Of a DNA stretch of 52,344 nt, positions 125 to 46,905 are shown piece by piece. Position 1 is the first letter of the stretch, and each line of letters begins with the position of its first letter. The notes beneath the pieces are model-generated. The model was given only the letters and a program-made list of their open reading frames with translations, was not told the origin of the DNA and did no database searches. This DNA is from Alphaproteobacteria bacterium (lineage in GTDB: Bacteria; Pseudomonadota; Alphaproteobacteria; RF32; CAG-239), in assembly GCA_017475525.1 (NCBI GenBank), contig JAFVFH010000036.1, positions 1-52,344 on the forward strand, given 5' to 3'. Made by a program: the position numbers and the translations under genes.

Positions 125-997
125 ATGAAAAAAACAGTTTTGATTTTGAGCTTAATGGTGAGTTTTAATGCCAACGCGTGGGAGCCTTGCGGCACAGATG
201 CCGAGGGCAATACGGCAAACTGCGAATATCAAATTATTGACGGCACATTAACGATTCGCGGTGTCGGTAATAATGGCAATATCGGAAGCTGGTCTAATGA
301 TACAGGAATATTGGCGCCGTGGCGTGGAAAAAATGTCGAGAATGTTGTTATTGAAAACTCAATTAAGGATTTAGGACAAATGGGGTTTGTCTATATAAAA
401 AGCCAAAATCCGATTACTATTCCCAACAGCATAACAACAATTGGCAGTAACGCTTTTTTCGCTGCAGATACTTCGGAAATCATTATTCCTGATAGTGTTA
501 CGGATATTAGTAGTACAGCTTTTAATTGGTCTTCAATCAAAAAAATCGATATTCCGGATTCAGTTAAAATATTAGGTGGGCTTCGAGGGACAAATCTTGT
601 TGATGTTGTTGTTCCGGATTCTGTCGAAAGAATCCGTGATATCGCTTTTTCGTACTGCATAAATCTTCAAAGTTTAACAATAGGTGAAAATACTCAAATA
701 AACCAAATTTTTGATTTTTATGATGAAGAAAGGTCTGAAAATCTTGAAAATCTCAAAATCTATTGCACGGGAGATACAAAAAAATGTGATGCGAATTTAG
801 AAGCGGCAGGTTATGGCGAGCTCAAATCAATCAAGGCGACAACAAAGCAAGTCAACGGGGTGACTTATGTTTATGACAACAAGGGAAAACTTGTGACGAC
901 ATCCGGCAAGCGCAAAGAAAAGCGCATCTACTCAATAGAAGAAGCCTCTCTTGTTTCCAAAAAAACAGGCAATACTTTTAAGTTGAGATACAAATAA
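125..997 (+). CDS. Secreted BspA-type leucine-rich-repeat (LRR_5-like) protein with conserved C-terminal tail
   Basis: AAGGAG RBS precedes the ATG. N-terminal signal peptide (MKKTVLILSLMVSFNANA). CxxxC..DGTLTIRG..APW opening followed by IP(D/N)SVT.I...AF repeats. Ends in KRIYSIEEASLVSKKTGNTFKLRYK, a tail shared with 3 other ORFs here. Confidence 0.8.
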   Translation: MKKTVLILSLMVSFNANAWEPCGTDAEGNTANCEYQIIDGTLTIRGVGNNGNIGSWSNDTGILAPWRGKNVENVVIENSIKDLGQMGFVYIKSQNPITIPNSITTIGSNAFFAADTSEIIIPDSVTDISSTAFNWSSIKKIDIPDSVKILGGLRGTNLVDVVVPDSVERIRDIAFSYCINLQSLTIGENTQINQIFDFYDEERSENLENLKIYCTGDTKKCDANLEAAGYGELKSIKATTKQVNGVTYVYDNKGKLVTTSGKRKEKRIYSIEEASLVSKKTGNTFKLRYK

Positions 998-2514: not shown

Positions 2515-4197
2515 ATGCAAAAAAAATTTTTTATACTGCCTTTGTTTGCTGCTTTTTTACTATCATCTAATGCAAAAGCGCTTGATTGTCCTTCAGGAAC
2601 AGTGGAAGGCACGAGTTGTTGGGCTGTATATGGAAGCGCACAGGCTGCGTATTTGATTAATGGTGTTTTGACCATACCTACGAATAGTTCTTATGCTAGC
2701 GCATCAAGCACACCATGGTATGGTTCTCGAAGTAAAATTACAAGCGTTGTCGTGACAGGCGGTGGTGGCATCGGAGCTTATGCTCTTGGCGGTTTATCAA
2801 AGGTAACAAGCGTGACATTTACCGGAAATACGTCCGGTTACATTTCTAAAAATGCTTTGAATGGTGCAACGTCATTAAAGACGTTGGTAATTCCAAAGGG
2901 AATGATGATTGAAAACGGAACTTTTACAGGATCCGGTGTGACAACGGTTGTTGCAGATAGGGATGCGGGGTTTGCATCAAAATCTTTTACAGGTCTTTCT
3001 TCAAGCGCCGTTTTGTATTGCGAAAGCGGTACAACCTGTTCAAGTGATGCTAAAAAAACAGGTTTTACCGGAACCGTCCGAAGTTATAATATCGACGCTA
3101 ATGGGGTGTATAGCTATAATGGTAAATATTTTGCTTCGGCGGATAATATGGGAAAAAATAATACATCGGGTTGTAGCACTTTGAGTGCCTGCACAACAAC
3201 AGTTAAAAACAACGAAATTGCCAAAATGGTATCCGAAGGAAAATATTGCAACTCAACAAGCACATGTTCGGCTTTATGGGATATGAAATCAAACGGTTAT
3301 TGTAGCGATTATACGGCGTGCAAAAAACTTTCGGATATGAAAAATGACGGCTATTGCACGGATTACAGCGATTGCAAAACGTTAGTCGATATGGCAAATG
3401 CAAAAACGTATTGCAAAACTATAGATACCTGTAAGGCATTGGTTGATATGAAAGCAAACGGTGATTGTGCAGACTATGCCAAATGTGTGAGTTTGCAACA
3501 AATGCAAACAGCCGGATGTGAGGCCGGAACGTATGATGCTTGCCTGAGCTTGTCACAAATGGAAGGTTGTGAGGGCTATACCGAATGTGCAAGCTTGCAA
3601 CAAATGCAAACAGCCGGATGCGAAGCCGGAACATATGAGGCTTGCTTGAGCTTGTCACAAATGGAAGGTTGTGAGGGCTATACCGAATGTGCAAGCTTGC
3701 AACAAATGCAAACAGCCGGATGCGAAGCCGGAACATATGAGGCTTGCTTGAACTTGTCACAAATGGAAGGTTGCTCGGGCTATGCCGAATGTGCCAGCTT
3801 GCAACAAATGCAAACAGCCGGATGTGAGGCCGGAACGTATGAGGTTTGTTTGAAGTTGTCACAAATGCAGACAAATGGCTATTGCGAAGATTACATTTCT
3901 TGTCAAGCTTTGCAGAATATGGCAGATACGAGCGATTTGTGTTCAACGCCGGAAAGTTGTAAAGAACTGATTGATATGTCAAGCGGAACTTTGTGCAACA
4001 CGCTTGAGAGTTGTCATGAGCTTGTGACAATGGCTAATGCTGGCGAAGTATGTTCAACAGCAGAGGAATGTAAAGCGTATCTTCACCAAAAAGCTGAAGA
4101 AGAACGTGCGTCAAAAATCAAGCGTATCTATACTATTGAAGAGGCAACGCGTCTTTCTAAAGAAACCGGCAACAAATTTAAATTAAGATATAAATAA
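2515..4197 (+). CDS. Secreted protein: N-terminal BspA-like LRR region, ~16-unit Cys-rich repeat array, and conserved C-terminal tail
   Basis: AGGAG RBS and signal peptide (LLSSNAKA). About 16 units of C-x5-6-C-x2-L-x2-M-x3-5. Ends in KRIYTIEEATRLSKETGNKFKLRYK. Confidence 0.8.
   Translation: MQKKFFILPLFAAFLLSSNAKALDCPSGTVEGTSCWAVYGSAQAAYLINGVLTIPTNSSYASASSTPWYGSRSKITSVVVTGGGGIGAYALGGLSKVTSVTFTGNTSGYISKNALNGATSLKTLVIPKGMMIENGTFTGSGVTTVVADRDAGFASKSFTGLSSSAVLYCESGTTCSSDAKKTGFTGTVRSYNIDANGVYSYNGKYFASADNMGKNNTSGCSTLSACTTTVKNNEIAKMVSEGKYCNSTSTCSALWDMKSNGYCSDYTACKKLSDMKNDGYCTDYSDCKTLVDMANAKTYCKTIDTCKALVDMKANGDCADYAKCVSLQQMQTAGCEAGTYDACLSLSQMEGCEGYTECASLQQMQTAGCEAGTYEACLSLSQMEGCEGYTECASLQQMQTAGCEAGTYEACLNLSQMEGCSGYAECASLQQMQTAGCEAGTYEVCLKLSQMQTNGYCEDYISCQALQNMADTSDLCSTPESCKELIDMSSGTLCNTLESCHELVTMANAGEVCSTAEECKAYLHQKAEEERASKIKRIYTIEEATRLSKETGNKFKLRYK
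3484..3865 (+). repeat. In-frame tandem repeat, 102-bp period, ~3.7 copies, inside CDS 2515..4197
   Basis: Copies start at 3484, 3586, 3688 and 3790. Each encodes the 34-aa unit CASLQQMQTAGCEAGTYEACLSLSQMEGCEGYTE. Copies 2 and 3 differ at about 5 of 102 nt by eye. Confidence 0.9.
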
Positions 4198-10646: not shown

Positions 10647-11360
10647 TTATTTATACCGCAATCTAAATGTATTTCCCGCCGGTTTGGAAACTTTGGTCGC
10701 TTCTTCAAGGGTATAAATACGCTTCGGAATATAGTTTCCGTTTTGCATATCCTTAAAATTGGCATATTTTTTGCCGCTAACAGAGTATCTTCCGTCAGCA
10801 TCTATAGTATATACATGAACGCCGGACGGCTTGCCTAAAGCTTTAAGACACTGCGCCGCAAGATTTTCGGGACAATAAAGCGATGCGTCAGTGTAAAAGG
10901 CATGATCGTCAATATATGTTGTCCCTTGAGGAACGGCAATATTTTCTACAGCAGAATTCATAAAAGCCGCACTGCCGATACGTGTCACCGTTTCAGGAAT
11001 GATGATACTTGTTTCCGCCAATTGGTAAAAAGCTGCTGCCCCGATTGATTCAATACCCTCTGATATCTCAATTCTTGTGATATCAAGCGCATAAGTGCCC
11101 CACGGTGCCGATGTTATATGTTGGCTTGTCCAGTTATTGTAAGGTAATACATATGAGTCAACTTGTTGAGAATAATAATCATACATATCTCCCGTGCCGG
11201 AAATCTCGAGTTTCCCATCACTGTATAGTTTCCAAGTGCAATTATCGCCGCATTTTGTCGTCGCATCATTCGGGTCTGTTTGAGCAATAATTGTTATTTC
11301 ATCGTTTGCCAGTACATTAAAACTTAAAATTAGACCCAAAATTAAAACAGTTTTCTTCAT
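10647..11360 (-). CDS. Secreted BspA-type LRR protein with conserved C-terminal tail
   Basis: Signal peptide. CGDNCTWKLYSDGKLEISGTG..APWG opening followed by LRR_5-like repeats. Ends in KRIYTLEEATKVSKPAGNTFRLRYK. Confidence 0.8.
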   Translation of the reverse strand: MKKTVLILGLILSFNVLANDEITIIAQTDPNDATTKCGDNCTWKLYSDGKLEISGTGDMYDYYSQQVDSYVLPYNNWTSQHITSAPWGTYALDITRIEISEGIESIGAAAFYQLAETSIIIPETVTRIGSAAFMNSAVENIAVPQGTTYIDDHAFYTDASLYCPENLAAQCLKALGKPSGVHVYTIDADGRYSVSGKKYANFKDMQNGNYIPKRIYTLEEATKVSKPAGNTFRLRYK

Positions 11361-19141: not shown

Positions 19142-20170
19142 TTATTTATAGCGCAGTTTGAAGGTGTTGCCGGTTGGTTTGGAAACCTTCGTAGCCTCTT
19201 CAATGGTGTAGATGCGCTTGTTTTTATATCCGATGACATTACCGTCTTTATCAACGATAGTATAACTGCCGTCATTTTCATTGTAAATTTCTTTGTTTGA
19301 GCTTCTCATCGGTGCTTGTATCATGTTATATGTTCCTTTTTGATAACCTGCGGTGAGCATGTTCGCCTCACAAACGGAGATTTTTCCGGTGCAATGAATC
19401 GTAATCCCTTCCAATGGAAGATCCCTATCAAAACCATCGGCAAAGAAAATTCGACCATCGCTGTATGATATAACGTAATCGTTTGCATCAGGATATTGGG
19501 TAAAATATGCCATTGCTGCATCAACATCTTTTTGTGTGAAATAACCTGTTTCTATCCTTTCTTGTAATTGAAATTTGCCAAAATCATCGTCATAAATCAT
19601 ATATCTTGGAATTAAAATATCTTTTTCTGATGTTCTGATGGGTGTATGTTCCCCAATAGTGACATCTGTAAGTGGGACATTATAAAAGGCGTATGCTCCT
19701 ATGATCTCGACCGAATCGGGAATATCTATGCTCTGAAGCGATGAGTTTTGAAATGCATGCTCCCCAATTTTAGTTACACTATCTGGAATATTAATAGAAC
19801 TTAAAGTGTGAGATTCAAAGGCAAATTCTCCAATTTCTTTTAGTCCTTCAGGAAGATTCACACTTTGCATATGATTGTAAAATTCAATTCTATATGCAAA
19901 TGCCCCATTAGGTATTCTTTCTATACCTTTTTCAAGAGTTAAAGAAAAATTATCTTCATTAAGTTTGTTGCGAACTTCGTTATTCCAGACTTGTACAAAA
20001 TTTGCCGGTATTGTGTAAGTTATGGATGAATCATTTGGGCCGAGAATAAGTTGCCTCGTTTCGGAATTAAAAGTCCATTTGCAATTAGTGCCACAATCAT
20101 CACCCGTAAGAATTTCGGCATTTGCATGAAAAGTTGCAGCCAACCCCAAAATCAAAATCAATTTTCTCAT
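19142..20170 (-). CDS. Secreted BspA-type LRR protein with conserved C-terminal tail
   Basis: Signal peptide. CGTNCKWTFNSETRQLILG opening followed by IPDSV..IG..AF repeats. Ends in KRIYTIEEATKVSKPTGNTFKLRYK. Confidence 0.8.
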   Translation of the reverse strand: MRKLILILGLAATFHANAEILTGDDCGTNCKWTFNSETRQLILGPNDSSITYTIPANFVQVWNNEVRNKLNEDNFSLTLEKGIERIPNGAFAYRIEFYNHMQSVNLPEGLKEIGEFAFESHTLSSINIPDSVTKIGEHAFQNSSLQSIDIPDSVEIIGAYAFYNVPLTDVTIGEHTPIRTSEKDILIPRYMIYDDDFGKFQLQERIETGYFTQKDVDAAMAYFTQYPDANDYVISYSDGRIFFADGFDRDLPLEGITIHCTGKISVCEANMLTAGYQKGTYNMIQAPMRSSNKEIYNENDGSYTIVDKDGNVIGYKNKRIYTIEEATKVSKPTGNTFKLRYK

Positions 20171-22579: not shown

Positions 22580-23221
22580 TTATATATCCTTTTTTGCAAA
22601 TTCTTTCAAAGCAAGCCTGATGAGCTCTTGAAGAGGTTGGTCGCTGTTTGTGCCGTAAACTTTAGTGGCGGCCTTGTAAGCTTCTAACCGCTGATATCCC
22701 AAATTGACAAGAGCGGAAATCACATCCTCTAAAATATCACTTTGTTCATCTTTGAGGGCGAGAGAACTTGTACTTAAATCCGTATCTGCCAAATCTTCAA
22801 GCTTGACATCACCCAGTGGTGCGGTAACGACCTTGTCTTTGAGCTCAGTCACAAGCCTTGCTGCCAATTTCGGTCCGACACCCGAAGCACGCGAAAACGA
22901 GGCTTTATCTTGCGCGGCAACGGCTTGGGCAAGTTGCGACGGGGTGAGGGCAGATAAAATGCTCAAACAAACTTTTGCGCCCACACCTTGAACTTTTGTG
23001 AGCGTTAAGAACCACTCTTTTTCCCAAGCGTCATAAAAGCCGTAGAGTGAAATGGAATCTTCACGCACCACCGTTTCAATGAGCAAAGTTGCTTCCATAC
23101 CCCTCACGAGTTTTGAAAGCGTGCGCGATGAACAGGCCACCAAATACCCCACACCGTTCACATCAACAATACAGCTGTCTTCATAAACGCTGTCTATGAT
23201 GCCTCTTAATTTTGCAATCAT
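22580..23221 (-). CDS. ruvA: Holliday junction DNA-binding protein RuvA
   Basis: MIAKLRGIIDSV...VDVNGVGY...LYGF, HhH region (VQGVGAKVCLSIL, ASGVGPKLAARL). Sits upstream of ruvB. Confidence 0.95.
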   Translation of the reverse strand: MIAKLRGIIDSVYEDSCIVDVNGVGYLVACSSRTLSKLVRGMEATLLIETVVREDSISLYGFYDAWEKEWFLTLTKVQGVGAKVCLSILSALTPSQLAQAVAAQDKASFSRASGVGPKLAARLVTELKDKVVTAPLGDVKLEDLADTDLSTSSLALKDEQSDILEDVISALVNLGYQRLEAYKAATKVYGTNSDQPLQELIRLALKEFAKKDI

Positions 23222-23304
23222 CTTTTTTCCTTCAAAAATATGCTCAAATTTTATAAAACATATCAGACAAACGCAAGTCTTTTATGCCCGTTCATCACAG
23301 CTTA

Positions 23305-23458
23305 AAAAATCCTCATTTTTTATCAAAAAATTCTTGACAAAAATCGAAGGGAGGGTAAAATGGAAGTACAAACAAATTAGTATGGATAAAGTTATGTCAA
23401 CTATTAGCCGTGTGCTATCAGATGATAAGATTTTTTATGCTTTTATATTTTGTTTATA
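23305..23458 (+). repeat. Cassette 5' block, copy 1 (promoter plus conserved leader/uORF)
   Basis: About 85-90% identical by eye to 25332..25484. Contains TTGACA-16-TAAAAT and the uORF MSTISRVLSDDKIFYAFIFCL (23394..23459). Confidence 0.85.
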
Positions 23459-23485
23459 ATATTTAACTTATAAATTATTTTAGTT

Positions 23486-23860
23486 ATGAAAAAAATTGTC
23501 GTTTTCTTCGCTCTCCTCCTTACCCTTACCATGGTGCCTTGTTTCTCTCAGGAGAAAAAGGATACTACGACCACCAAAGCCGCAACGACGATCTCAGTCA
23601 CACCCGGATATCGTCTTGTCAAAAGGGTTACCATTATGCCAGAAGACAATCTTGGCGGTCCTTATGTTGTATTGTTGTTGGATCATGGCCAAATGGTCGA
23701 AATCCGACACCAAATCGGAGAAACATATTACCACAGACCAATTTATGGCACGGAAAAAAAAGCCTTTACGCTTCATCCGGGCGACGAAGTAATGATACGT
23801 CCGGATAGAAGAGGGAACTACATTCTAGTTAACGTTAAGTACTACATGCATACTTTATAG
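23486..23860 (+). CDS. Small secreted hypothetical protein (cassette 1 cargo)
   Basis: Signal peptide MKKIVVFFALLLTLTMVPCFSQ. No family recognised. Confidence 0.55.
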   Translation: MKKIVVFFALLLTLTMVPCFSQEKKDTTTTKAATTISVTPGYRLVKRVTIMPEDNLGGPYVVLLLDHGQMVEIRHQIGETYYHRPIYGTEKKAFTLHPGDEVMIRPDRRGNYILVNVKYYMHTL

Positions 23861-23876
23861 TTAATGTTAAGTTCAA

Positions 23877-23960
23877 GTAGTAACGTATAGCACACGAACC
23901 CCTCGGATTTTTGAAGTTTATCATGAAAATGATCTGCTTTGAAATACGAGGGATTTTTTA
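23877..23960 (+). repeat. Cassette 3' block, copy 1 (conserved sequence plus terminator)
   Basis: GTAGTAACGTATAGCACACGAACCCCTCGGATTTTTGAAGTTT matches 25703... CCCTCG pairs with CGAGGG (23947-23952), followed by T6. Confidence 0.8.
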
Positions 23961-23962
23961 TT

Positions 23963-25204
23963 TTAAAGCTCATCTTGGAGCAGAAAGTCTTTTAAGCCGA
24001 GTGTTAATATCCCATTATCATCAAAATAAGGCATAATGTCATTTTTTGTGACGATAATTTTCTTAAAACTGTCGTTTATTTTTAAAAGTGGGCGCTTTTC
24101 TTGAATTTGTTTTTCTTCAGTCGGCATTGAAAGTGCAGATTGAATATAATATTTTTTATTACCCTTGTTTGCAATAAAATCCACTTCAATCTTTTTGGGT
24201 TTATAACTCTCATTTGTTTTTTCATAAATATCAAGCTCTCCGATATCTACTTCAAAACCTCTGATTTTTAGCTCATTATAAATCACATTTTCCATAAGAT
24301 GAGATTCTTCAAGTTGCCTGAAATGTAAGCGGGCATTTCTTAACCCGACATCCGTAAAGTAGTATTTTGACGGCGTATTGATATATTTTTTGCCTTTGAT
24401 GTCATAGCGCAAAACTTTATCTAAGATAAATGAATCTTCCAGATAATTAAGATATGTTTTAATCGTTGGAGCTGAAATATCGGAATGTTTGAGAGTTTGA
24501 AATGTGTCTGAGAGCTTTTGCGGATTAATCAGACACCCGACGCATGAAGCAATGATATCTGTCAATTCGCTTAATTCTTGATTGTTTTTAATATTGTTTC
24601 GTTCTTCAATGTCCTTAAAATATGTTTCTAAAAACAAATCTTTCAGATATTTCACTTTTTCATCATCTGTGTTTTGGAGCACGGCAAGAGGCATTCCTCC
24701 GAAAGTATAATACTGACGCCACGCGTCTTCAAAATGATCGCCGAAAGCATCAAAAAATTCTTTAAAACTTAAAGGGAAAACTCTAATTTCGTCACCGCGT
24801 CCGCGAAATTCTGTGACAACATCGGTTGATAAAAATTTTGAATTAGAACCTGTCACATACACGTCTAAATTTTTAATGTGTAAAAAGCCATTTAAAACAT
24901 CTTCAAAATTGCCCATCATTTGCACTTCATCAAGCAAAAGATAGTGCATTTTTTCATCTTTAATGGAAGCTTTAACATATTGATAACAATTATCCGGATT
25001 GCGATATTCACGCTTTGCATAATCATCTAAGGCAAGGTGTATAATATGGTCTTTTTTAACACCGCTGCCCAAAAGGTGTTTTTGGAACAATTCGCTCAGA
25101 AGATATGATTTTCCTGACCGCCGAATACCGCTGATGATTTTAATAAGCCCGTTGTGTTTGTGCGAAATAATTTGATTCAAATATCTGTCTCTTGCAATTT
25201 TCAT
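23963..25204 (-). CDS. AAA-family ATPase with DUF4143-type C-terminal domain
   Basis: Walker A GIRRSGKS. Walker B-like LLLDEVQ. 413 aa overall, matching the AAA_14/DUF4143 architecture as recalled. Confidence 0.7.
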   Translation of the reverse strand: MKIARDRYLNQIISHKHNGLIKIISGIRRSGKSYLLSELFQKHLLGSGVKKDHIIHLALDDYAKREYRNPDNCYQYVKASIKDEKMHYLLLDEVQMMGNFEDVLNGFLHIKNLDVYVTGSNSKFLSTDVVTEFRGRGDEIRVFPLSFKEFFDAFGDHFEDAWRQYYTFGGMPLAVLQNTDDEKVKYLKDLFLETYFKDIEERNNIKNNQELSELTDIIASCVGCLINPQKLSDTFQTLKHSDISAPTIKTYLNYLEDSFILDKVLRYDIKGKKYINTPSKYYFTDVGLRNARLHFRQLEESHLMENVIYNELKIRGFEVDIGELDIYEKTNESYKPKKIEVDFIANKGNKKYYIQSALSMPTEEKQIQEKRPLLKINDSFKKIIVTKNDIMPYFDDNGILTLGLKDFLLQDEL

Positions 25205-25212
25205 CTTGTCCT

Positions 25213-25254
25213 CATTTTAGAAAATATATAATATCTCACTTTTTCTAAAATAGA
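25213..25254. repeat. 42-bp repeat R1 containing a 10-bp inverted repeat (TTTTAGAAAA..TTTTCTAAAA)
   Basis: About 35 of 41 positions match R2 (25286..25327). Abuts the RBS of the ATPase gene. Confidence 0.75.
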
Positions 25255-25285
25255 AATAACATAAAAGATGTATATTGTCAAGGCA

Positions 25286-25327
25286 TATTTTAGAAAACAT
25301 CTGATATCTTACTTTTTCTAAAACAGA
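25286..25327. repeat. 42-bp repeat R2 (paralog of R1)
   Basis: Same palindromic arms as R1. A minus-strand TTGACA (25276-25281) lies between R1 and R2. Confidence 0.75.
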
Positions 25328-25331
25328 TGGC

Positions 25332-25484
25332 AAAAATCCTCATTTTTTATCAAAAAACTCTTGACAAAAATCGGGGGGGGGTAAAATGGAAGTAATAAAC
25401 AAATTAGTGTGGATGATTTATGTCAACTATTAGCCGTGTGCGATCGGATGATAAGATTTTTTCATACTTTATATTTTGTTTATT
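25332..25484 (+). repeat. Cassette 5' block, copy 2
   Basis: Paralog of 23305..23458. Contains the uORF MSTISRVRSDDKIFSYFIFCLLKPNV (25420..25500). Confidence 0.85.
25361..25387 (+). promoter_or_regulatory. Sigma70-like promoter with a G9 homopolymer in the spacer
   Basis: TTGACA(25361-25366), a 15-nt spacer containing G9 (25373-25381), then TAAAAT(25382-25387). Copy 1 has a 16-nt spacer with the interrupted sequence GAAGGGAGGG. Confidence 0.6.
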
Positions 25485-25517
25485 AAAACCGAATGTTTAA
25501 CAATTAAAATAGAAGTT

Positions 25518-25706
25518 ATGAAAGTTATCTTTGTAATTCTCAGTGTAGTATTTGTTCTCTTTTCCATTATGATGAGTATTCTTCTCATTAACTGGAAAAA
25601 GACATCTCATTCCATAAAAGAATGGGATTTCAGAGATTGGCTTTCCGTTTCACTTTGTGTGACGGAAATGCTGGTCTCGCTCATACTGTGCTACTTGCTG
25701 ATGTAG
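25518..25706 (+). CDS. Small two-TM membrane protein (cassette 2 cargo)
   Basis: 62 aa with two hydrophobic helices (VIFVILSVVFVLFSIMMSILLI; LSVSLCVTEMLVSLILCYLL). ATG 25518 aligns with the ATG of cassette 1. Confidence 0.5.
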   Translation: MKVIFVILSVVFVLFSIMMSILLINWKKTSHSIKEWDFRDWLSVSLCVTEMLVSLILCYLLM

Positions 25707-25785
25707 TACACGTAGCACACGAACCCCTCGGATTTTTGAAGTTTTTTACGCAAGTGATTGACTAAAAAATCCGAGGCTTTTTTTA
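25703..25785 (+). repeat. Cassette 3' block, copy 2 (conserved sequence plus terminator)
   Basis: GTAGTACACGTAGCACACGAACCCCTCGGATTTTTGAAGTTT. CCTCGGATTTTT pairs with AAAAAATCCGAGG, followed by T7. Confidence 0.8.
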
Positions 25786-25861
25786 TTTTAATTTCCCTCT
25801 TTATTTTTATTCAAAATAGATTATATTTGAAAAATCTGATAAAATAAGTTGGAGAAAGTTC

Positions 25862-26998
25862 ATGAAAAAAAGGTTACTTTTAAGCTGTTGCGCAATATTG
25901 TTTGCCTCAAATGCCAATGCGCGCAGTTTGTCAACGGACTACTCAATGTTCAAATATTGGCTCAACAAAAACTACGGTTTGGATTACGGCGTGGATATTT
26001 CGGTTATGCCGCAACGCGGTGCTCCATCTGGCAAATACAACGCTGTTCAAGCTTATATTTATCCGTATCTGACATGGACGAACTTCAAAAACGAGTATGG
26101 TACCGGAAGCCTTAATATGGCTTATTCCATCATCCGTTACGGAAATCATGATGCCTCGGATATCGGAAATCGTATGGGGGTTATCAGCGCCATCAATGAT
26201 TATGACGACAAAACAAACGAGTTCAACGAACTGTATTACAGTTATCAGCTCGGCGGTTCTTGGAACTGGCTCACGTTAGGTTTAGGTCAATTTCCGATTT
26301 ATAATTGGGACGGCTCGGATTATAACTCAAATCAGCAGGTCAATTTTATTAACTATGCTTTGTCGCAAAACCCATCTTCAACTTATTCAACTGCTGGCGT
26401 CGGCGGTTTTGCAACTGTTACGCCAAGTAATGAATGGAGCTTTACACTCGGTGCACAAGATGCCACAAATGTGGACGGCATCAGCGTTCAGCTCAATAAT
26501 TTTGGTGACGGCCATTTCACAACATTTGGGCAGGCCGAATGGACACCGACGAATAAATTGGGCGAAGCTCAAGTTTCCGTGTTGCTCTATAATCAACCGG
26601 GGGTGAAAGAACAACCGCAAACAACAAACGGTTGGTCTTTGAACTGGTCGCAAAACATCGGTGAAAAATGGAATATTTTTGCGCGTGTCAATGGTGTTTC
26701 GGGGCATATGGATACCGTTGAGCAGTCTTGGTCAGGAGGGGTGGTCTATTTAAATCCTTTGGGCAGAAACTCGCTTGATCAAATCGGTTTTGGTTATGCC
26801 TTAAATAAAATCAATGAAGAAGCTGTCGGAGAGCCTTTGGCACACGATACGGAGCATGTTTTTGAAGCATACTGGGCATGGGGTTTTTCAAAATGGATGA
26901 CCATAACACCGGATTTCCAATTTTATATCCACCCTGCGCTTAATCAAAAGTCAGACTATGGCACAGCTGTATCTTTAAGATTGACGTTGTTTTTATAG
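25862..26998 (+). CDS. Putative outer-membrane beta-barrel porin
   Basis: Signal peptide (ILFASNANA). Alternating aromatic/polar strand patterns. C-terminus ..SLRLTLFL. Family not resolved. Confidence 0.45.
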   Translation: MKKRLLLSCCAILFASNANARSLSTDYSMFKYWLNKNYGLDYGVDISVMPQRGAPSGKYNAVQAYIYPYLTWTNFKNEYGTGSLNMAYSIIRYGNHDASDIGNRMGVISAINDYDDKTNEFNELYYSYQLGGSWNWLTLGLGQFPIYNWDGSDYNSNQQVNFINYALSQNPSSTYSTAGVGGFATVTPSNEWSFTLGAQDATNVDGISVQLNNFGDGHFTTFGQAEWTPTNKLGEAQVSVLLYNQPGVKEQPQTTNGWSLNWSQNIGEKWNIFARVNGVSGHMDTVEQSWSGGVVYLNPLGRNSLDQIGFGYALNKINEEAVGEPLAHDTEHVFEAYWAWGFSKWMTITPDFQFYIHPALNQKSDYGTAVSLRLTLFL

Positions 26999-27976
26999 GC
27001 GTTGTAAACCGCCTTGTTGAAAAACTTCGGCAACGGCATAAGATTGGAAGTTTTCTTTTGGCGGAATGGCATGCAATAGAAAAGCTTGAGCTCTTAATTC
27101 TTCATCTTGAGCAATCATTTCTTCCAAAAGTTGAGGTTTTTCTTCGAGTTGGGTAATCAATTCGTCTTTATATTGGCTTGGAATTTTTGCAACAGCAATA
27201 ATTTTAGATAATTTGACGGAATAATCTTTTTCACAGTTCAAGCTCTTGACACAAATGTCTCCTTGTTCATCATACTTTTCAAAAGTGACGCAATGCATAC
27301 CGCTTGATGTGTTTTGAGAAGACTTCAACATTAAAATATCGCCTGGCTCTAATTGATTTTTAAAAACAGCTTGATAATCTTTGGTGCTTTGGTCAATATA
27401 ATTGCTGCCGAGTTTGGCTTTGTAATATGCGCAAAATGCCGGACAAGAAACATTAGGATGGCTGTCTAATTGAAGCTTTTTCGGTGTTGCCTCGGTGCTG
27501 ACCAAAATGTTTTTTAAAACCATATTCATAAGAGAATCGGTCACGCTTTCGTAATAAGCTGAAGTTGCGCCTGCAACACAATAATTTTCTTTGCCTGAAA
27601 GACCGCCTTTTTTATAAACTTGCGAAAACAATTTTCTGATGCGCGAAGCTTTTTTATTTTTAGGTGTTGCAAGAATAGCGTTTTGCAAATGATCGATGTT
27701 TTCTATCACTTGTCGGCTGAGTTCCGACGTTTTCTTTTCTGCAATTTTTTGAATGAGCCTTTGTTTTGCAATATCGTTTTTAGAAGCATTGGGAGCGGCA
27801 CTAAGCTCTACTAAATTGTGCTTATCACGCTCGGTTTCAAACCTTTGATTCGCTTGTGCGTTGGAAGAAATCAAAGCAAGCAAAACAGCACATTTGATCC
27901 AAAGTGTTTTTGAAAAAGTTTTTGGATTTTGTTTAGGTGAAGCATTTGCCGAGTTATGTAAATTTTTATTTTCCAT
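26993..27976 (-). CDS. Secreted hypothetical protein (possible papain-fold Cys/His pair)
   Basis: Signal peptide ending SSNAQA. Contains ENYCVAGATSAY and PGDILML..SSGMHCVTF. No family recognised. Confidence 0.5.
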   Translation of the reverse strand: MENKNLHNSANASPKQNPKTFSKTLWIKCAVLLALISSNAQANQRFETERDKHNLVELSAAPNASKNDIAKQRLIQKIAEKKTSELSRQVIENIDHLQNAILATPKNKKASRIRKLFSQVYKKGGLSGKENYCVAGATSAYYESVTDSLMNMVLKNILVSTEATPKKLQLDSHPNVSCPAFCAYYKAKLGSNYIDQSTKDYQAVFKNQLEPGDILMLKSSQNTSSGMHCVTFEKYDEQGDICVKSLNCEKDYSVKLSKIIAVAKIPSQYKDELITQLEEKPQLLEEMIAQDEELRAQAFLLHAIPPKENFQSYAVAEVFQQGGLQRL

Positions 27977-45067: not shown

Positions 45068-45889
45068 ATGGCAATAAACGAAATCTTAAAAAAATATAAG
45101 TCGATAGATAAAGGGCTTGCGAGTGAGCGAATGGACGTTTTTCAAGAAGGTCTGGATGCCGTTTCAACGCTTCATTTGAGCAAATCGTTTATGGGTATTA
45201 AAGCTGTGAATGATTTGAGTATTTCTTTTCCTTTAGGGTTGGTCACAGGGCTCATCGGCCCGAACGGCTCAGGTAAATCAACGCTGATTAATTTGCTGAC
45301 AGGACTGCTCACTCCCGATGCCGGCTCAATTGTTATTTCAGGTCGTGCATTTCCTTATATCAAACCGTATAAGCTCCGCAAATTTAAGATGGCGCGCACT
45401 TTTCAAGATGCCAGACTTGTGGAACAACTCAGTGTTGAAGACAACCTGCTTTTGAGCGTGGCGCAAAATAAAATAGAAAAGAGCCTGTTTGAATTGAGCA
45501 CAAAAGCATATCGCAAAAAACTTGAGGGAATATTGATTAAAACAGGCTTGAAAGATCATCGCTTCAAAAAAGCGGAAGAGCTTTCTTACGGGCAAAGAAA
45601 GCTCTTGGAAATCGGCAGAGCTTGGATGCAGGAAGCTGATATTTATATTTTTGATGAGCCGTTTACGGGGCTTTCGCCGCAAATGGTTGAAGAGGTTTTA
45701 TCCATTATTGAAATTTTGCGTGTTGAAGGCAAAACGGTGATTTTGATTGAACATAATATGGGCCTGATTGAAAAGCTTTCGGACTATGTGATTGTCTTAG
45801 ACCATGGAACGCTTCTTGCCTCAGGCGCACCGAAAGATGTTTTGAAAAACAAACTTGTCCAAGAAGCATATTTGGGAGTACAAAAATAA
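45068..45889 (+). CDS. livG: Branched-chain amino acid ABC transporter ATP-binding protein (LivG-type)
   Basis: GPNGSGKST, LSYGQRKLLEI, IFDEPFTGL. Confidence 0.85.
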   Translation: MAINEILKKYKSIDKGLASERMDVFQEGLDAVSTLHLSKSFMGIKAVNDLSISFPLGLVTGLIGPNGSGKSTLINLLTGLLTPDAGSIVISGRAFPYIKPYKLRKFKMARTFQDARLVEQLSVEDNLLLSVAQNKIEKSLFELSTKAYRKKLEGILIKTGLKDHRFKKAEELSYGQRKLLEIGRAWMQEADIYIFDEPFTGLSPQMVEEVLSIIEILRVEGKTVILIEHNMGLIEKLSDYVIVLDHGTLLASGAPKDVLKNKLVQEAYLGVQK

Positions 45890-46905
45890 TGGCAAGCTTG
45901 ACAGATAAAAACACGCCGTTTTTTGCTGATGTTGCAGAATTGCTGCAAACTGCACGTTCTAAAGCATATCGGGCAGTTAATTCCATTATGGTAGAAACAT
46001 ATTGGAAAATCGGCGAGCGAATTGTCAAAGAAGAACAAAACGGTAAAAGTCGTGCTGAATATGGTGAAAAATTGATTGAAAATCTTTCGCGTTATTTAAC
46101 GGATACTTTTGGAAATGGCTTTTCTGAAGCTAATTTACAGAATTTTCGCCGCTTTTATCTGACCTTTCCCGAATTTCCTACACACTGTGTAGGGAATCTG
46201 TCTTGGTCTAATATTCGTTATATTATGCGGCTTGATAGCAAAGAAGAACGCGAATATTATATGCGTGAATCAGCTGAACAAAATTGGTCATTTCGCGTCT
46301 TAGAACGCAATATAAAGTCAGGTTATTACCATCGTTTGCTGTCAACACAGCAAAAAAATATCGCACCTATCGAAAATTTGCCGGCAGAAATTAAGGCTCA
46401 AGATTTCATCAAAGATCCATATGTTTTGGAATTTTTGGATGTGCCGGAAAATATTGAGGGCAAGGAAAGTCTTTTGGAAAAAGAGCTGATTGCGCACTTG
46501 CAAAAGTTTTTGCTCGAGCTCGGTAAGGGCTTTTCTTTTGTTGCACGCCAACAGCGTATCAGCACGGAAACAGAGCATTTCTACGCAGATTTGGTATTTT
46601 ATAACTACATTTTGAAGTGTTTTGTTGTCATAGACTTAAAAACCGACAAGTTAACGCACGCAGATATCGGGCAAATGGATATGTATGTCAGAATGTTTGA
46701 CGAATTAAAACGCGGTATTGATGACAATCCGACAATCGGTATTATTCTTTGCACGGATAAAAGCGAGACAATGGTTAAATATTCCGTTTTAAAAGAAAAT
46801 AAGCAGTTATTTGCCAGCAAATATAAAACCATTTTACCAACGGAAGAAGAGTTGGCTGATATGCTTGCCGCGGAAAATTCGCGACTTTTAGCAGATAAAT
46901 CATAA
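45889..46905 (+). CDS. DUF1016/YhcG-family PD-(D/E)XK nuclease-like protein embedded in the liv operon
   Basis: TARSKAYRAVNSIMVETYWKIGERIV. FYADLVFYNYILKCFVVIDLK (D...D-x-K core), similar to E. coli YhcG as recalled. The ATG overlaps the livG TAA (TAATG). Confidence 0.75.
   Translation: MASLTDKNTPFFADVAELLQTARSKAYRAVNSIMVETYWKIGERIVKEEQNGKSRAEYGEKLIENLSRYLTDTFGNGFSEANLQNFRRFYLTFPEFPTHCVGNLSWSNIRYIMRLDSKEEREYYMRESAEQNWSFRVLERNIKSGYYHRLLSTQQKNIAPIENLPAEIKAQDFIKDPYVLEFLDVPENIEGKESLLEKELIAHLQKFLLELGKGFSFVARQQRISTETEHFYADLVFYNYILKCFVVIDLKTDKLTHADIGQMDMYVRMFDELKRGIDDNPTIGIILCTDKSETMVKYSVLKENKQLFASKYKTILPTEEELADMLAAENSRLLADKS

Follow-up and report, generated by a model that had tools for sequence, protein, structure and literature searches.

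Two small cassettes with homologous flanks and unrelated open reading frames (ORFs) occupy the interval between ruvA and an OprB-family porin gene in the 52,344-nt metagenome contig JAFVFH010000036.1 of an uncultured gut alphaproteobacterium, the whole of which is called the window here (Table 1). With moderate confidence, we interpret them as chromosomal moron-like expression cassettes, built from common non-coding modules and located at a ruvA-oprB hotspot. Each cassette would be an autonomous single-gene transcription unit with three non-coding modules: a promoter, a structured 5′ untranslated region (UTR) of ~95 nt, and a 3′ UTR with a GCACAC box and a long terminator. Between them would lie an orphan ORF, different in each unit, for a small protein that is secreted or membrane-bound. 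The modules would be conserved because they are expression signals, and would double as homology arms, with duplication or gene conversion keeping the flanks alike and the cargo between them being replaced. The anatomy of the cassettes, the family to which they belong and the hotspot that holds them were directly observed.

Table 1. Features of the ruvA-porin interval and its borders, in window coordinates
Feature	Position	Strand	Description
ruvA	22580..23221	-	Pfam RuvA_N/HHH_5/RuvA_C; conserved left border of hotspot
Cassette 1 promoter module	23305..23367	+	UP-like T-tract/A-tract; TTGACA 23334-23339; TAAAAT 23356-23361; GG
Cassette 1 5′ leader	23368..23485	+	Conserved to 23458; box CGTGTGC(TAT) 23409-23418
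Cargo 1	23486..23860	+	124-aa orphan; signal-like or lipoprotein-like N-terminus; weak ankyrin-like stretch (residues 57-95)
Cassette 1 3′ module	23877..23966	+	GCACACG 23890-23896; predicted terminator hairpin 23900-23952; T tract
AAA_14 + DUF4143 ATPase	23963..25204	-	Pfam; PADLOC PDC-S01 candidate phage-defense gene
Two 41-nt direct repeats	25214-25254, 25287-25327		88% identical; palindrome TTTTAGAAAA...TTTTCTAAAA in each
Cassette 2 promoter module	25332..25393	+	TTGACA 25361-25366; G9 25373-25381; TAAAAT 25382-25387; GG
Cassette 2 5′ leader	25394..25517	+	Conserved to 25484; box CGTGTGC 25435-25441
Cargo 2	25518..25706	+	62-aa orphan; two hydrophobic segments
Cassette 2 3′ module	25703..25791	+	GCACACG 25715-25721; predicted terminator hairpin 25726-25776; T tract
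OprB-family porin gene	25862..26998	+	Pfam OprB; conserved right border; beside ruvA in relatives L006-L020

The initial annotation of this DNA had described a 5′ block and a 3′ block, each present twice, and both duplications were borne out by a repeat search, MAFFT alignment and blastn within the window. Copies of the 5′ block (23305-23458/60 and 25332-25484/86) were 90.3% identical over 155 nt (E 1e-38). Those of the 3′ block (23877-23966 and 25703-25791) were about 81–83% identical (~81% over 91 nt) and shared an exact 32-nt core, TAGCACACGAACCCCTCGGATTTTTGAAGTTT. Blastn revealed no further copy of either block in the 52-kb window. The cargo regions between the blocks (23459-23876 and 25485-25702) aligned with a local score of 20, as against 19.6 ± 2.9 for shuffled sequence, and neither BLASTP nor tblastx gave a signal between the two cargos, in keeping with the earlier statement that the ORFs are unrelated. 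Also upheld were the description of the products as a secreted and a two-transmembrane (TM) protein, the first having one N-terminal signal-like hydrophobic segment and the second two hydrophobic segments, and the assignment of promoter and leader to the 5′ block and terminator to the 3′ block, on which promoter scan and hairpin folds agreed.

A known mobile-element or repetitive extragenic palindromic (REP) origin of the flanks, raised earlier as an alternative, was not supported by matches to Rfam or to phage and plasmid collections. Rfam 15 covariance models gave nothing at gathering thresholds in the window, with chance-level matches alone across 23200-25900 (E > 0.7), and nothing at L220 and L221, two related cassette loci described below (loci and contigs used for comparison carry L numbers). 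Exact 22–27-nt cores of both blocks had zero matches in 185,579 species genomes; thus, the GTDB representatives do not include the window species. Across 2.2 Mb of related loci, no leader copies were found beyond the cassettes themselves, and each copy frames an ORF.

The 5′ block resolves into two separable modules, a promoter of ~63 nt and a leader of ~95 nt. The promoter scan located TTGACA-16-TAAAAT at 23334-23361 in cassette 1, with 11 of 12 positions matching consensus and a 16-nt spacer ending in an interrupted G-rich GAAGGGAGGG. The counterpart in cassette 2, TTGACA-15-TAAAAT at 25361-25387, was missed by the scan because its spacer, which contains an uninterrupted G9, is 15 nt long. 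Both modules are predicted to be near-consensus, very strong sigma-70-type promoters whose sole non-optimal feature is the G-rich 15–16-nt spacer. An uninterrupted homopolymer of at least 7 nt between -35 and -10 is present in cassette 2 and not in cassette 1. This G9 is the sole G/C run of at least 7 nt in the window, where 0.05 runs of at least 9 nt are expected, and 1.17 Mb of related alphaproteobacterial loci held five G/C runs of at least 7 nt, two of them inside these promoters. European Nucleotide Archive (ENA) contig ERZ27256838:k141_69357 corresponds almost entirely to the window, and the proteins encoded there recurred on one other ENA scaffold and three short Logan contigs from run SRR12529321 only; the Logan contigs end exactly at the 32-nt repeat and otherwise match the window fully, G9 run included.

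The promoter module is far more widespread than the rest of the cassette. The opening ~65 nt of the 5′ block reappear ahead of unrelated ORFs at further loci and in other species (L093, L103, L158, L161, L168, L187, L194, L206 and L214), including second loci of the metagenome-assembled genomes (MAGs) of L003, L020, L063, L082 and L168. The resulting promoter family occupies many gut alphaproteobacterial MAG loci, usually with a G7–G10 run in the spacer. A loose promoter pattern without the G run was drowned in chance matches, and the pattern CTTGACAAAA-N1-8-G7-TAAAATGG was used instead. This strict pattern occurred 23 times in the 185,579 species genomes, always in animal-gut MAGs (about half Alphaproteobacteria, half Clostridia), where we estimate a chance expectation of ~0.002 from pattern length and collection size; it had no match in viral contigs. 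Spacers in the family measure 14–16 nt with pure G7–G9 tracts and 16–17 nt with interrupted tracts, and tract length varies across species and paralogues: G7 in L003, G8 in L004, G9 in the window and L221_X1, and G6 versus G8 in UMGS863. By these sequence features, cassette 2 appears to have the design of a phase-variable promoter. Its G9 would change length by slipped-strand mispairing, the present 15-nt spacer becoming 16–17 nt with G10–G11, while cassette 1, with its interrupted tract and 16-nt spacer, would have a fixed promoter.

Two further observations concern this promoter architecture. The region upstream of the porin gene (25785-25861; TTCCCTCTTTATTTTTATTCA...TTGAAAAATCTGATAAAAT) resembles the cassette promoter at 23305-23365 (ATCCTCATTTTTTATCA...TTGACAAAAATCG-[G run]-TAAAAT), and the latter may derive from ancestral porin upstream sequence by G-run expansion. 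An arrangement of TTGACA, G6–G10 and TAAAATGG was also present in gut Clostridia MAG contigs (L205, L207, L210-L213, L216, L217, L150, L152 and L199), with four copies in the Clostridia MAG Coassembly_mag_441 and tracts of G6 and G8 at two related UMGS863-type loci. The clostridial copies have different flanks, made up of TAAAATGGGGTATC and a long palindrome, which holds TTATCCACA in some of them, and no known RNAs were found downstream.

A metagenome scan with an invariant leader 20-mer led to two further cassettes, L220 (with strain variants L222-L224) and L221. L221 adjoins tRNA-Leu, a locus different from the ruvA-porin interval. At L220, the leader follows another promoter, one that lacks a G run, indicating that promoter and leader modules are separable. 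The leader is predicted to fold as a long three-helix hairpin in which 90% of cells pair. Its covariation score was 0.192 versus 0.133 for shuffles, a value reached by 9 of 500 shuffles, and one compensatory UA-to-GU change separates two strains. Two other identities for the leader were rejected. A small ORF within it (MSTISRV..FIFCL; 23394-23459 and 25420-25501) is not maintained as a leader peptide: L221 has GGG for ATG and a stop after 8 codons, so the leader is taken as non-coding, and the small ORF of L220 has a different C-terminus. A known RNA family or riboswitch was not supported, as Rfam gave no match.

Both 3′ blocks fold into a long hairpin followed by a U tract (z = -3.1 for copy 1 and -4.0 for copy 2, relative to shuffles), and the block is predicted to comprise a GCACAC box and an intrinsic (Rho-independent) terminator. 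The hairpin has a conserved 5′ arm whose 3′ partner differs between the copies: the pairing is CCCTCG/CGAGGG in the first and CCTCGGATTTTT/AAAAAATCCGAGG in the second. This confirms the earlier reading that terminator pairing is kept by different downstream partners. The stop codon of the neighboring ATPase gene (23963-23965, minus strand) falls within the last bases of the cassette 1 module. Homologous 3′ modules were found at L003_A, L220 and L221; L003_A keeps the terminator and lacks leader and box. Leader and 3′ module carry mutually reverse-complementary boxes, CGTGTGC(TAT) and (ATA)GCACACG (23409-23418 with 23887-23896; 25435-25441 with 25715-25721), the second of which lies at or directly after the cargo stop codon, and this complementarity is kept in all four leader-bearing cassettes. 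A helix between the boxes was part of the minimum free energy structure of three of four full-length transcripts, with a probability of 0.83–1.0. Helices of at least 7 bp between 5′ and 3′ ends were also given by 40% of random window segments, and the copy 2 box helix had a median probability of 0.14 when random cargos were inserted.

Pairing of this kind raises the possibility of a type I toxin-antitoxin-like system, in which the cargos would be hydrophobic toxins and their mRNA would be kept inactive by the leader and CGUGUGC/GCACACG pairing. The hok/sok and aapA/IsoA loci are type I toxin-antitoxin loci with such 5′-3′ mRNA pairing, and they resemble the cassettes in their small hydrophobic ORFs, long structured 5′ UTR, predicted pairing between UTRs and tandem copies. 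Four of the five cargos with a 3′ module have 62–122 aa and two or more hydrophobic segments, and the loci are duplicated in intergenic regions. The frequent box helix, the position of the 3′ box directly behind the stop codon and the co-occurrence of the boxes, with L003_A having the terminator and neither leader nor box, also fit this model. However, type I toxins are hydrophobic peptides of less than ~60 aa, and the cargos (62–124 aa) include a secreted-type protein, cargo 1, that is not a toxin-like peptide. The cargos also lack the conservation typical of a toxin family, being mutually unrelated. Scan and inspection detected no conserved antisense promoter-terminator pair. The predicted box helix is not statistically distinctive, given the results with random segments and random cargos, and shows no covariation, and PADLOC and Pfam gave no match. 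We consider such a system quite unlikely.

Beyond the window, the leader and 3′ block surround new ORFs at L220/L222 and L221, and in the sister species L003 another ORF lies between a promoter of equivalent position, next to ruvA, and a homologous terminator. Common flanks are thus known from five cassettes, two in the window and one each at L003, L220 and L221, and, because the same flanks surround other genes in relatives, we regard them as a small family of modular cassettes. Identity between flanks was higher within than between genomes. The two window promoters, P1 and P2, are 94% identical, while P1 shares 73% identity with the promoter at the same position in L003 and 67% with that in L004, and is 83% and 89% identical to the G-run promoters L003_PB and L004_PB. 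The window terminators T1 and T2 are 83% identical, and T1 and L003_TA are 76% identical. Flanks that are more alike within a genome than across species, around different cargos, are expected from duplication or gene conversion with cargo replacement. The earlier proposal of a cassette family with variable cargo therefore stands; its further element, exchange by recombination, we infer from the within-genome likeness of the flanks (94% versus 67–73%), which suggests cargo turnover by homologous recombination between them. At L220, and also at L222, the two copies of a 21-nt direct repeat, TTTTTGTTTACGATTATTGCG, are placed on either side of the cassette, one upstream of its promoter and one immediately behind its terminator (119-139 and 780-800 in L220). 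Identical junction sequence thus frames the cassette, the arrangement that a tandem array would give. In L222, a further ~117 nt are inserted upstream of the promoter.

A simpler history would be a one-off tandem duplication of a single unit, after which one ORF was destroyed or overwritten, for example when the ATPase gene arrived. The window has just two copies, their flanks, within one genome, are the most similar pair of all those compared, and the ATPase gene sits exactly at the junction, all as this history would have it. It is nonetheless very unlikely in view of the leader and 3′ module around other ORFs on unlinked contigs and at a different locus (L221, by tRNA-Leu), the homologous L003 terminator around another ORF, and the promoter module at many loci in many species. 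Moreover, neither window ORF is disrupted, and the spacing between leader and start codon is as expected in both.

The five cargos that share the 3′ module are mutually unrelated. Besides the signal peptide-like 124-aa product and the 62-aa product with two hydrophobic segments in window cassettes 1 and 2, they comprise a 94-aa multi-TM protein (L221_X1), a 122-aa protein with four TM segments (L220) and a 64-aa protein with two (L003_A). Searches of 5.8 billion proteins with the cargos of window cassettes 1 and 2 and L220 returned no homologue beyond near-identical copies, the sole match of the L220 cargo being a strain variant with 96% identity. Cargo 1 gave weak ankyrin-repeat matches over residues 57-95 in an exhaustive HMMER search and a weak match to a lipoprotein N-terminus; its AlphaFold2 model, with a predicted local distance difference test score of 52, was unusable. 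Elsewhere in the promoter family the cargos are larger orphans, among them proteins with ankyrin, MORN or RHS-like repeats and proteins with common C-terminal tails.

Cargo proteins of relatives, at L003 (8613-9458, minus strand), L004 (8398-9819, minus strand), L005 (8336-10001 region), and at L004 (7677-8210, minus strand), L161 and L093, have short conserved ends and variable middles. In one group the N-terminus reads MAT[RK]ED..GIAGAA and the C-terminus QQKGNTYQ[VI]TQRDFD[AG]R; in another the C-terminal tail is KRSGANLGKTGDTKTGE..HR. Conserved tails on otherwise unrelated cargos might act in secretion or anchoring.

Pore-former immunity and superinfection-exclusion proteins are typically small multi-TM orphans. 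The cassettes could accordingly be read as an array of orphan genes for immunity or exclusion, directed against bacteriocins, polymorphic toxins or phages and swapped between strains via their conserved flanks, much as the initial annotation had likened them to immunity or toxin-type arrays. Turnover between close species is high, and the genes at cassette junctions, a defense-candidate PDC-S01 ATPase gene in the window and a phage-type Bro-N gene at L221, are of a suitable kind. The comparison found no support in the protein searches, where the cargos tested were without homologues, and no similarity to any immunity family emerged by sequence or profile. A toxin gene, secretion system or bacteriocin locus was not found nearby, and the other cargos of the promoter family are large, soluble and ankyrin-, MORN- or RHS-like, resembling effectors or surface proteins more closely. 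An immunity array is thus unlikely.

RuvA of the window is 62–91% identical to RuvA of 80 related MAG loci, and by sequence these relatives put the organism among uncultured animal-gut Alphaproteobacteria. The contig has the content of an ordinary housekeeping chromosome. GC content in the ruvA-to-porin interval is 33% versus 40% for the window, matching the AT-rich segment noted earlier. Comparison of synteny showed that ruvA and the OprB porin gene are divergent neighbors with a gap of 150–185 nt in 14 more distant relatives (RuvA 70–75%), and that the interval is widened, to 719–2640 nt, in the window clade alone. It spans 2640 nt with two units in the window, 1512 nt with two units in L003 (RuvA 91%), 2450 nt with two units in L004 (RuvA 85%), 1665 nt with one unit in L005 and 719 nt with one unit in L063. 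Every unit in the widened intervals consists of promoter, ORF and terminator in one shared orientation, with the ORF differing from unit to unit. As the border genes lie only 150–185 nt apart in distant relatives, the cassettes are insertions, and one clade of uncultured animal-gut Alphaproteobacteria has a hotspot for insertion in the ruvA-oprB interval.

The units can also be compared with site-specific-recombination cassettes of the integron type, or with a family of miniature inverted-repeat transposable elements (MITEs) or REP repeats. The units have sharp boundaries, short inverted boxes (GTGTGC/GCACAC) around the cargo, and a junction motif, ATTTTAA(A/T)TTCCCTCTTTATTTTTAT, that recurs behind each terminator; like integron cassettes, they are short and hold one variable ORF each between conserved boundary sequences. 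However, relatives have this motif in their ancestral ruvA-porin spacer as well, which makes it local sequence, not an element end. No integrase or other recombinase was found in the 52 kb: precomputed Pfam annotations of the whole contig include no integrase (IntI among them), transposase, recombinase or phage genes. Inspection of the cassette ends revealed no attC-like imperfect palindrome, terminal inverted repeats or target-site duplications, and there was no phage, plasmid or Rfam match. Unlike integron cassettes, these units carry their own promoters, and their 3′ element is a terminator with a GC stem and U tract; unlike REP or MITE repeats, they number two in 52 kb, each framing an ORF. 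Membership in either class is excluded on these features, and an origin of this general kind is extremely improbable. All four alternatives are less well supported than moron-like cassettes. At L221, the gene for tRNA-Leu(taa) (3580-3666, minus strand) is followed, within about 420 nt downstream in tRNA orientation, by two tandem repeats of ~100 nt, each with a tRNA 3′-end-like fragment, CCTTCCGGCCTAGCG, at its end and a small terminator; the L221 cassettes come directly after. These repeats look like old integration scars.

The initial annotation had the cassettes bracketing the DUF4143 ATPase gene, an arrangement that now appears incidental. The ATPase matches PADLOC PDC-S01 (PDLC04787, E = 1e-114) over residues 3-411, on profile positions 11-409 of 412, which makes it a candidate for a defense function. 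Its gene has a GC content of 33.6%, has nucleotide matches in Firmicutes/Fusobacterium 'ATP-binding protein' genes only, and has no counterpart at any of the 80 related ruvA loci. By these sequence comparisons it is best regarded as a separate, horizontally acquired low-GC insertion. It sits exactly at the terminator-promoter junction between the cassettes, and L221 has a reverse-oriented Bro-N gene between its two cassettes. Position at the junction, absence elsewhere and the Bro-N gene at the L221 junction together mark the ATPase gene as a passenger at a permissive junction, not a cassette part. The two 41-nt direct repeats lie between its start codon, of which they are just upstream, and cassette 2, and are probably control elements (operators or 5′-UTR hairpins) of the ATPase gene.

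Other features of the contig lie outside the interval. A 327-aa orphan gene with no Pfam or NCBIfam match (26993-27976, minus strand) points towards the porin gene, whose end it overlaps by 6 nt, and L004 has a 342-aa ORF convergent with its porin gene in the equivalent position. A YhcG/DUF1016 nuclease-family gene (45889-46905, plus strand) lies within an operon for a branched-chain amino-acid ABC transporter and appears to be a further solitary insertion of accessory or defense-like character. Three LRR_5 repeat proteins are encoded amid housekeeping genes (125-997, plus strand; 10647-11360, minus strand; 19142-20170, minus strand). Together with the ankyrin and MORN cargos of relatives, they suggest a lineage rich in eukaryote-like repeat proteins.

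Several points weigh against interpreting the units as moron-like expression cassettes. Transcription and termination at these sites are predicted from sequence. The full flank set, and with it the ~95-nt leader, is known from four distinct cassettes only (two in the window, L220 and L221), and independent ORF insertion into duplicated flanks fits as well as recombinational exchange; the two cannot be told apart. The structure of the leader is weakly suggested by five sequences with one compensatory pair. The cargos are orphans, and the gene caller of the assembly called no gene at cargo 2. In the sole strain comparison, L220 versus L222, the cargo differs by five non-synonymous and two synonymous codon changes; with so few changes in this proportion, purifying selection on the cargo is not demonstrated. 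Both compared assemblies of this organism have G9, with no length heterogeneity seen. Finally, with spacers of 14–15 nt between TTGACA and TAAAAT, the true recognition elements may be other than assumed.

In the framework of Hendrix and colleagues, phage morons are single genes that lie as insertions between two conserved neighbors and carry a promoter of their own and a factor-independent terminator (PMC2920897). Different units at one hotspot, deviant base composition and expression independent of neighbors are further marks of morons (PMC2920897). The window units likewise have their own consensus-like promoter and terminator hairpin, are inserted between genes that are close neighbors in L006-L020, differ among related genomes at the same hotspot, and have a base composition unlike their surroundings; independent expression is, in this case, predicted from sequence. 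They differ from morons in lying in a housekeeping chromosomal interval, with no phage genes and no matches to viral contigs or phage records, and in sharing homologous promoter, leader and terminator modules, which are not part of the moron definition.

Homopolymers in the spacer between -35 and -10 underlie the phase-variable promoters of porA and opc in Neisseria meningitidis, vlp in Mycoplasma hyorhinis and fim in Bordetella. Homopolymeric-tract variation in general has been treated before (PMC5084427, PMC1891110, PMC6389960). Shared with these systems are the uninterrupted G7–G10 between near-consensus -35 and -10 elements, tract lengths that differ among homologous promoters, the rarity of such runs elsewhere in the genome, and downstream genes that encode surface, secreted or membrane proteins. 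Uniform G9 in the compared assemblies sets the window organism apart, and the switch would be a property read from sequence. A third parallel is offered by the upstream homology box families of Borrelia burgdorferi (erp, ospE/F and elp), in which the promoter and 5′ regions of paralogous loci are highly conserved, the mature coding sequences are unrelated, and shuffling by recombination between the flanks has been proposed. Common 5′ regions ahead of unrelated coding sequences recur in the window. However, the Borrelia families reside on cp32 plasmids/prophages and share signal-peptide coding, whereas the window flanks are wholly non-coding and include a shared 3′ terminator module. The feature is thus a variation on morons, homopolymeric-tract promoters and conserved-upstream-box gene families.

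A bolder and distinctly tentative extension is that these cassettes serve plug-and-play expression, in which a promoter of maximal strength tuned by a hypermutable poly-G spacer, box-paired UTRs (with CGUGUGC at the apex of the folded leader) and a long terminator would receive new or foreign ORFs, exchanged by homologous recombination, and yield stochastic, strain-specific expression of orphan proteins in what we take to be RF32-like Alphaproteobacteria. The products could be membrane or secreted factors for phage or toxin exclusion, or for host interaction. To our knowledge, no contingency loci have been described in uncultured gut commensal Alphaproteobacteria.

Should the cargos not be expressed, the locus would be a duplicated intergenic region of no consequence. 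If the moron-like reading is correct, chromosomal hotspots of uncultured gut bacteria would acquire and exchange orphan genes in the form of complete transcription units, as phages do with morons, and conservation and recombination would both reside in the non-coding expression signals. The poly-G promoters would then constitute a first candidate class of contingency promoter in gut commensal Alphaproteobacteria, with a signature of TTGACA, G7–10 and TAAAATGG that is searchable in metagenomes. The small orphan membrane proteins of these cassettes, likely to be strongly expressed, would then be candidates for roles in exclusion, immunity or host interaction.

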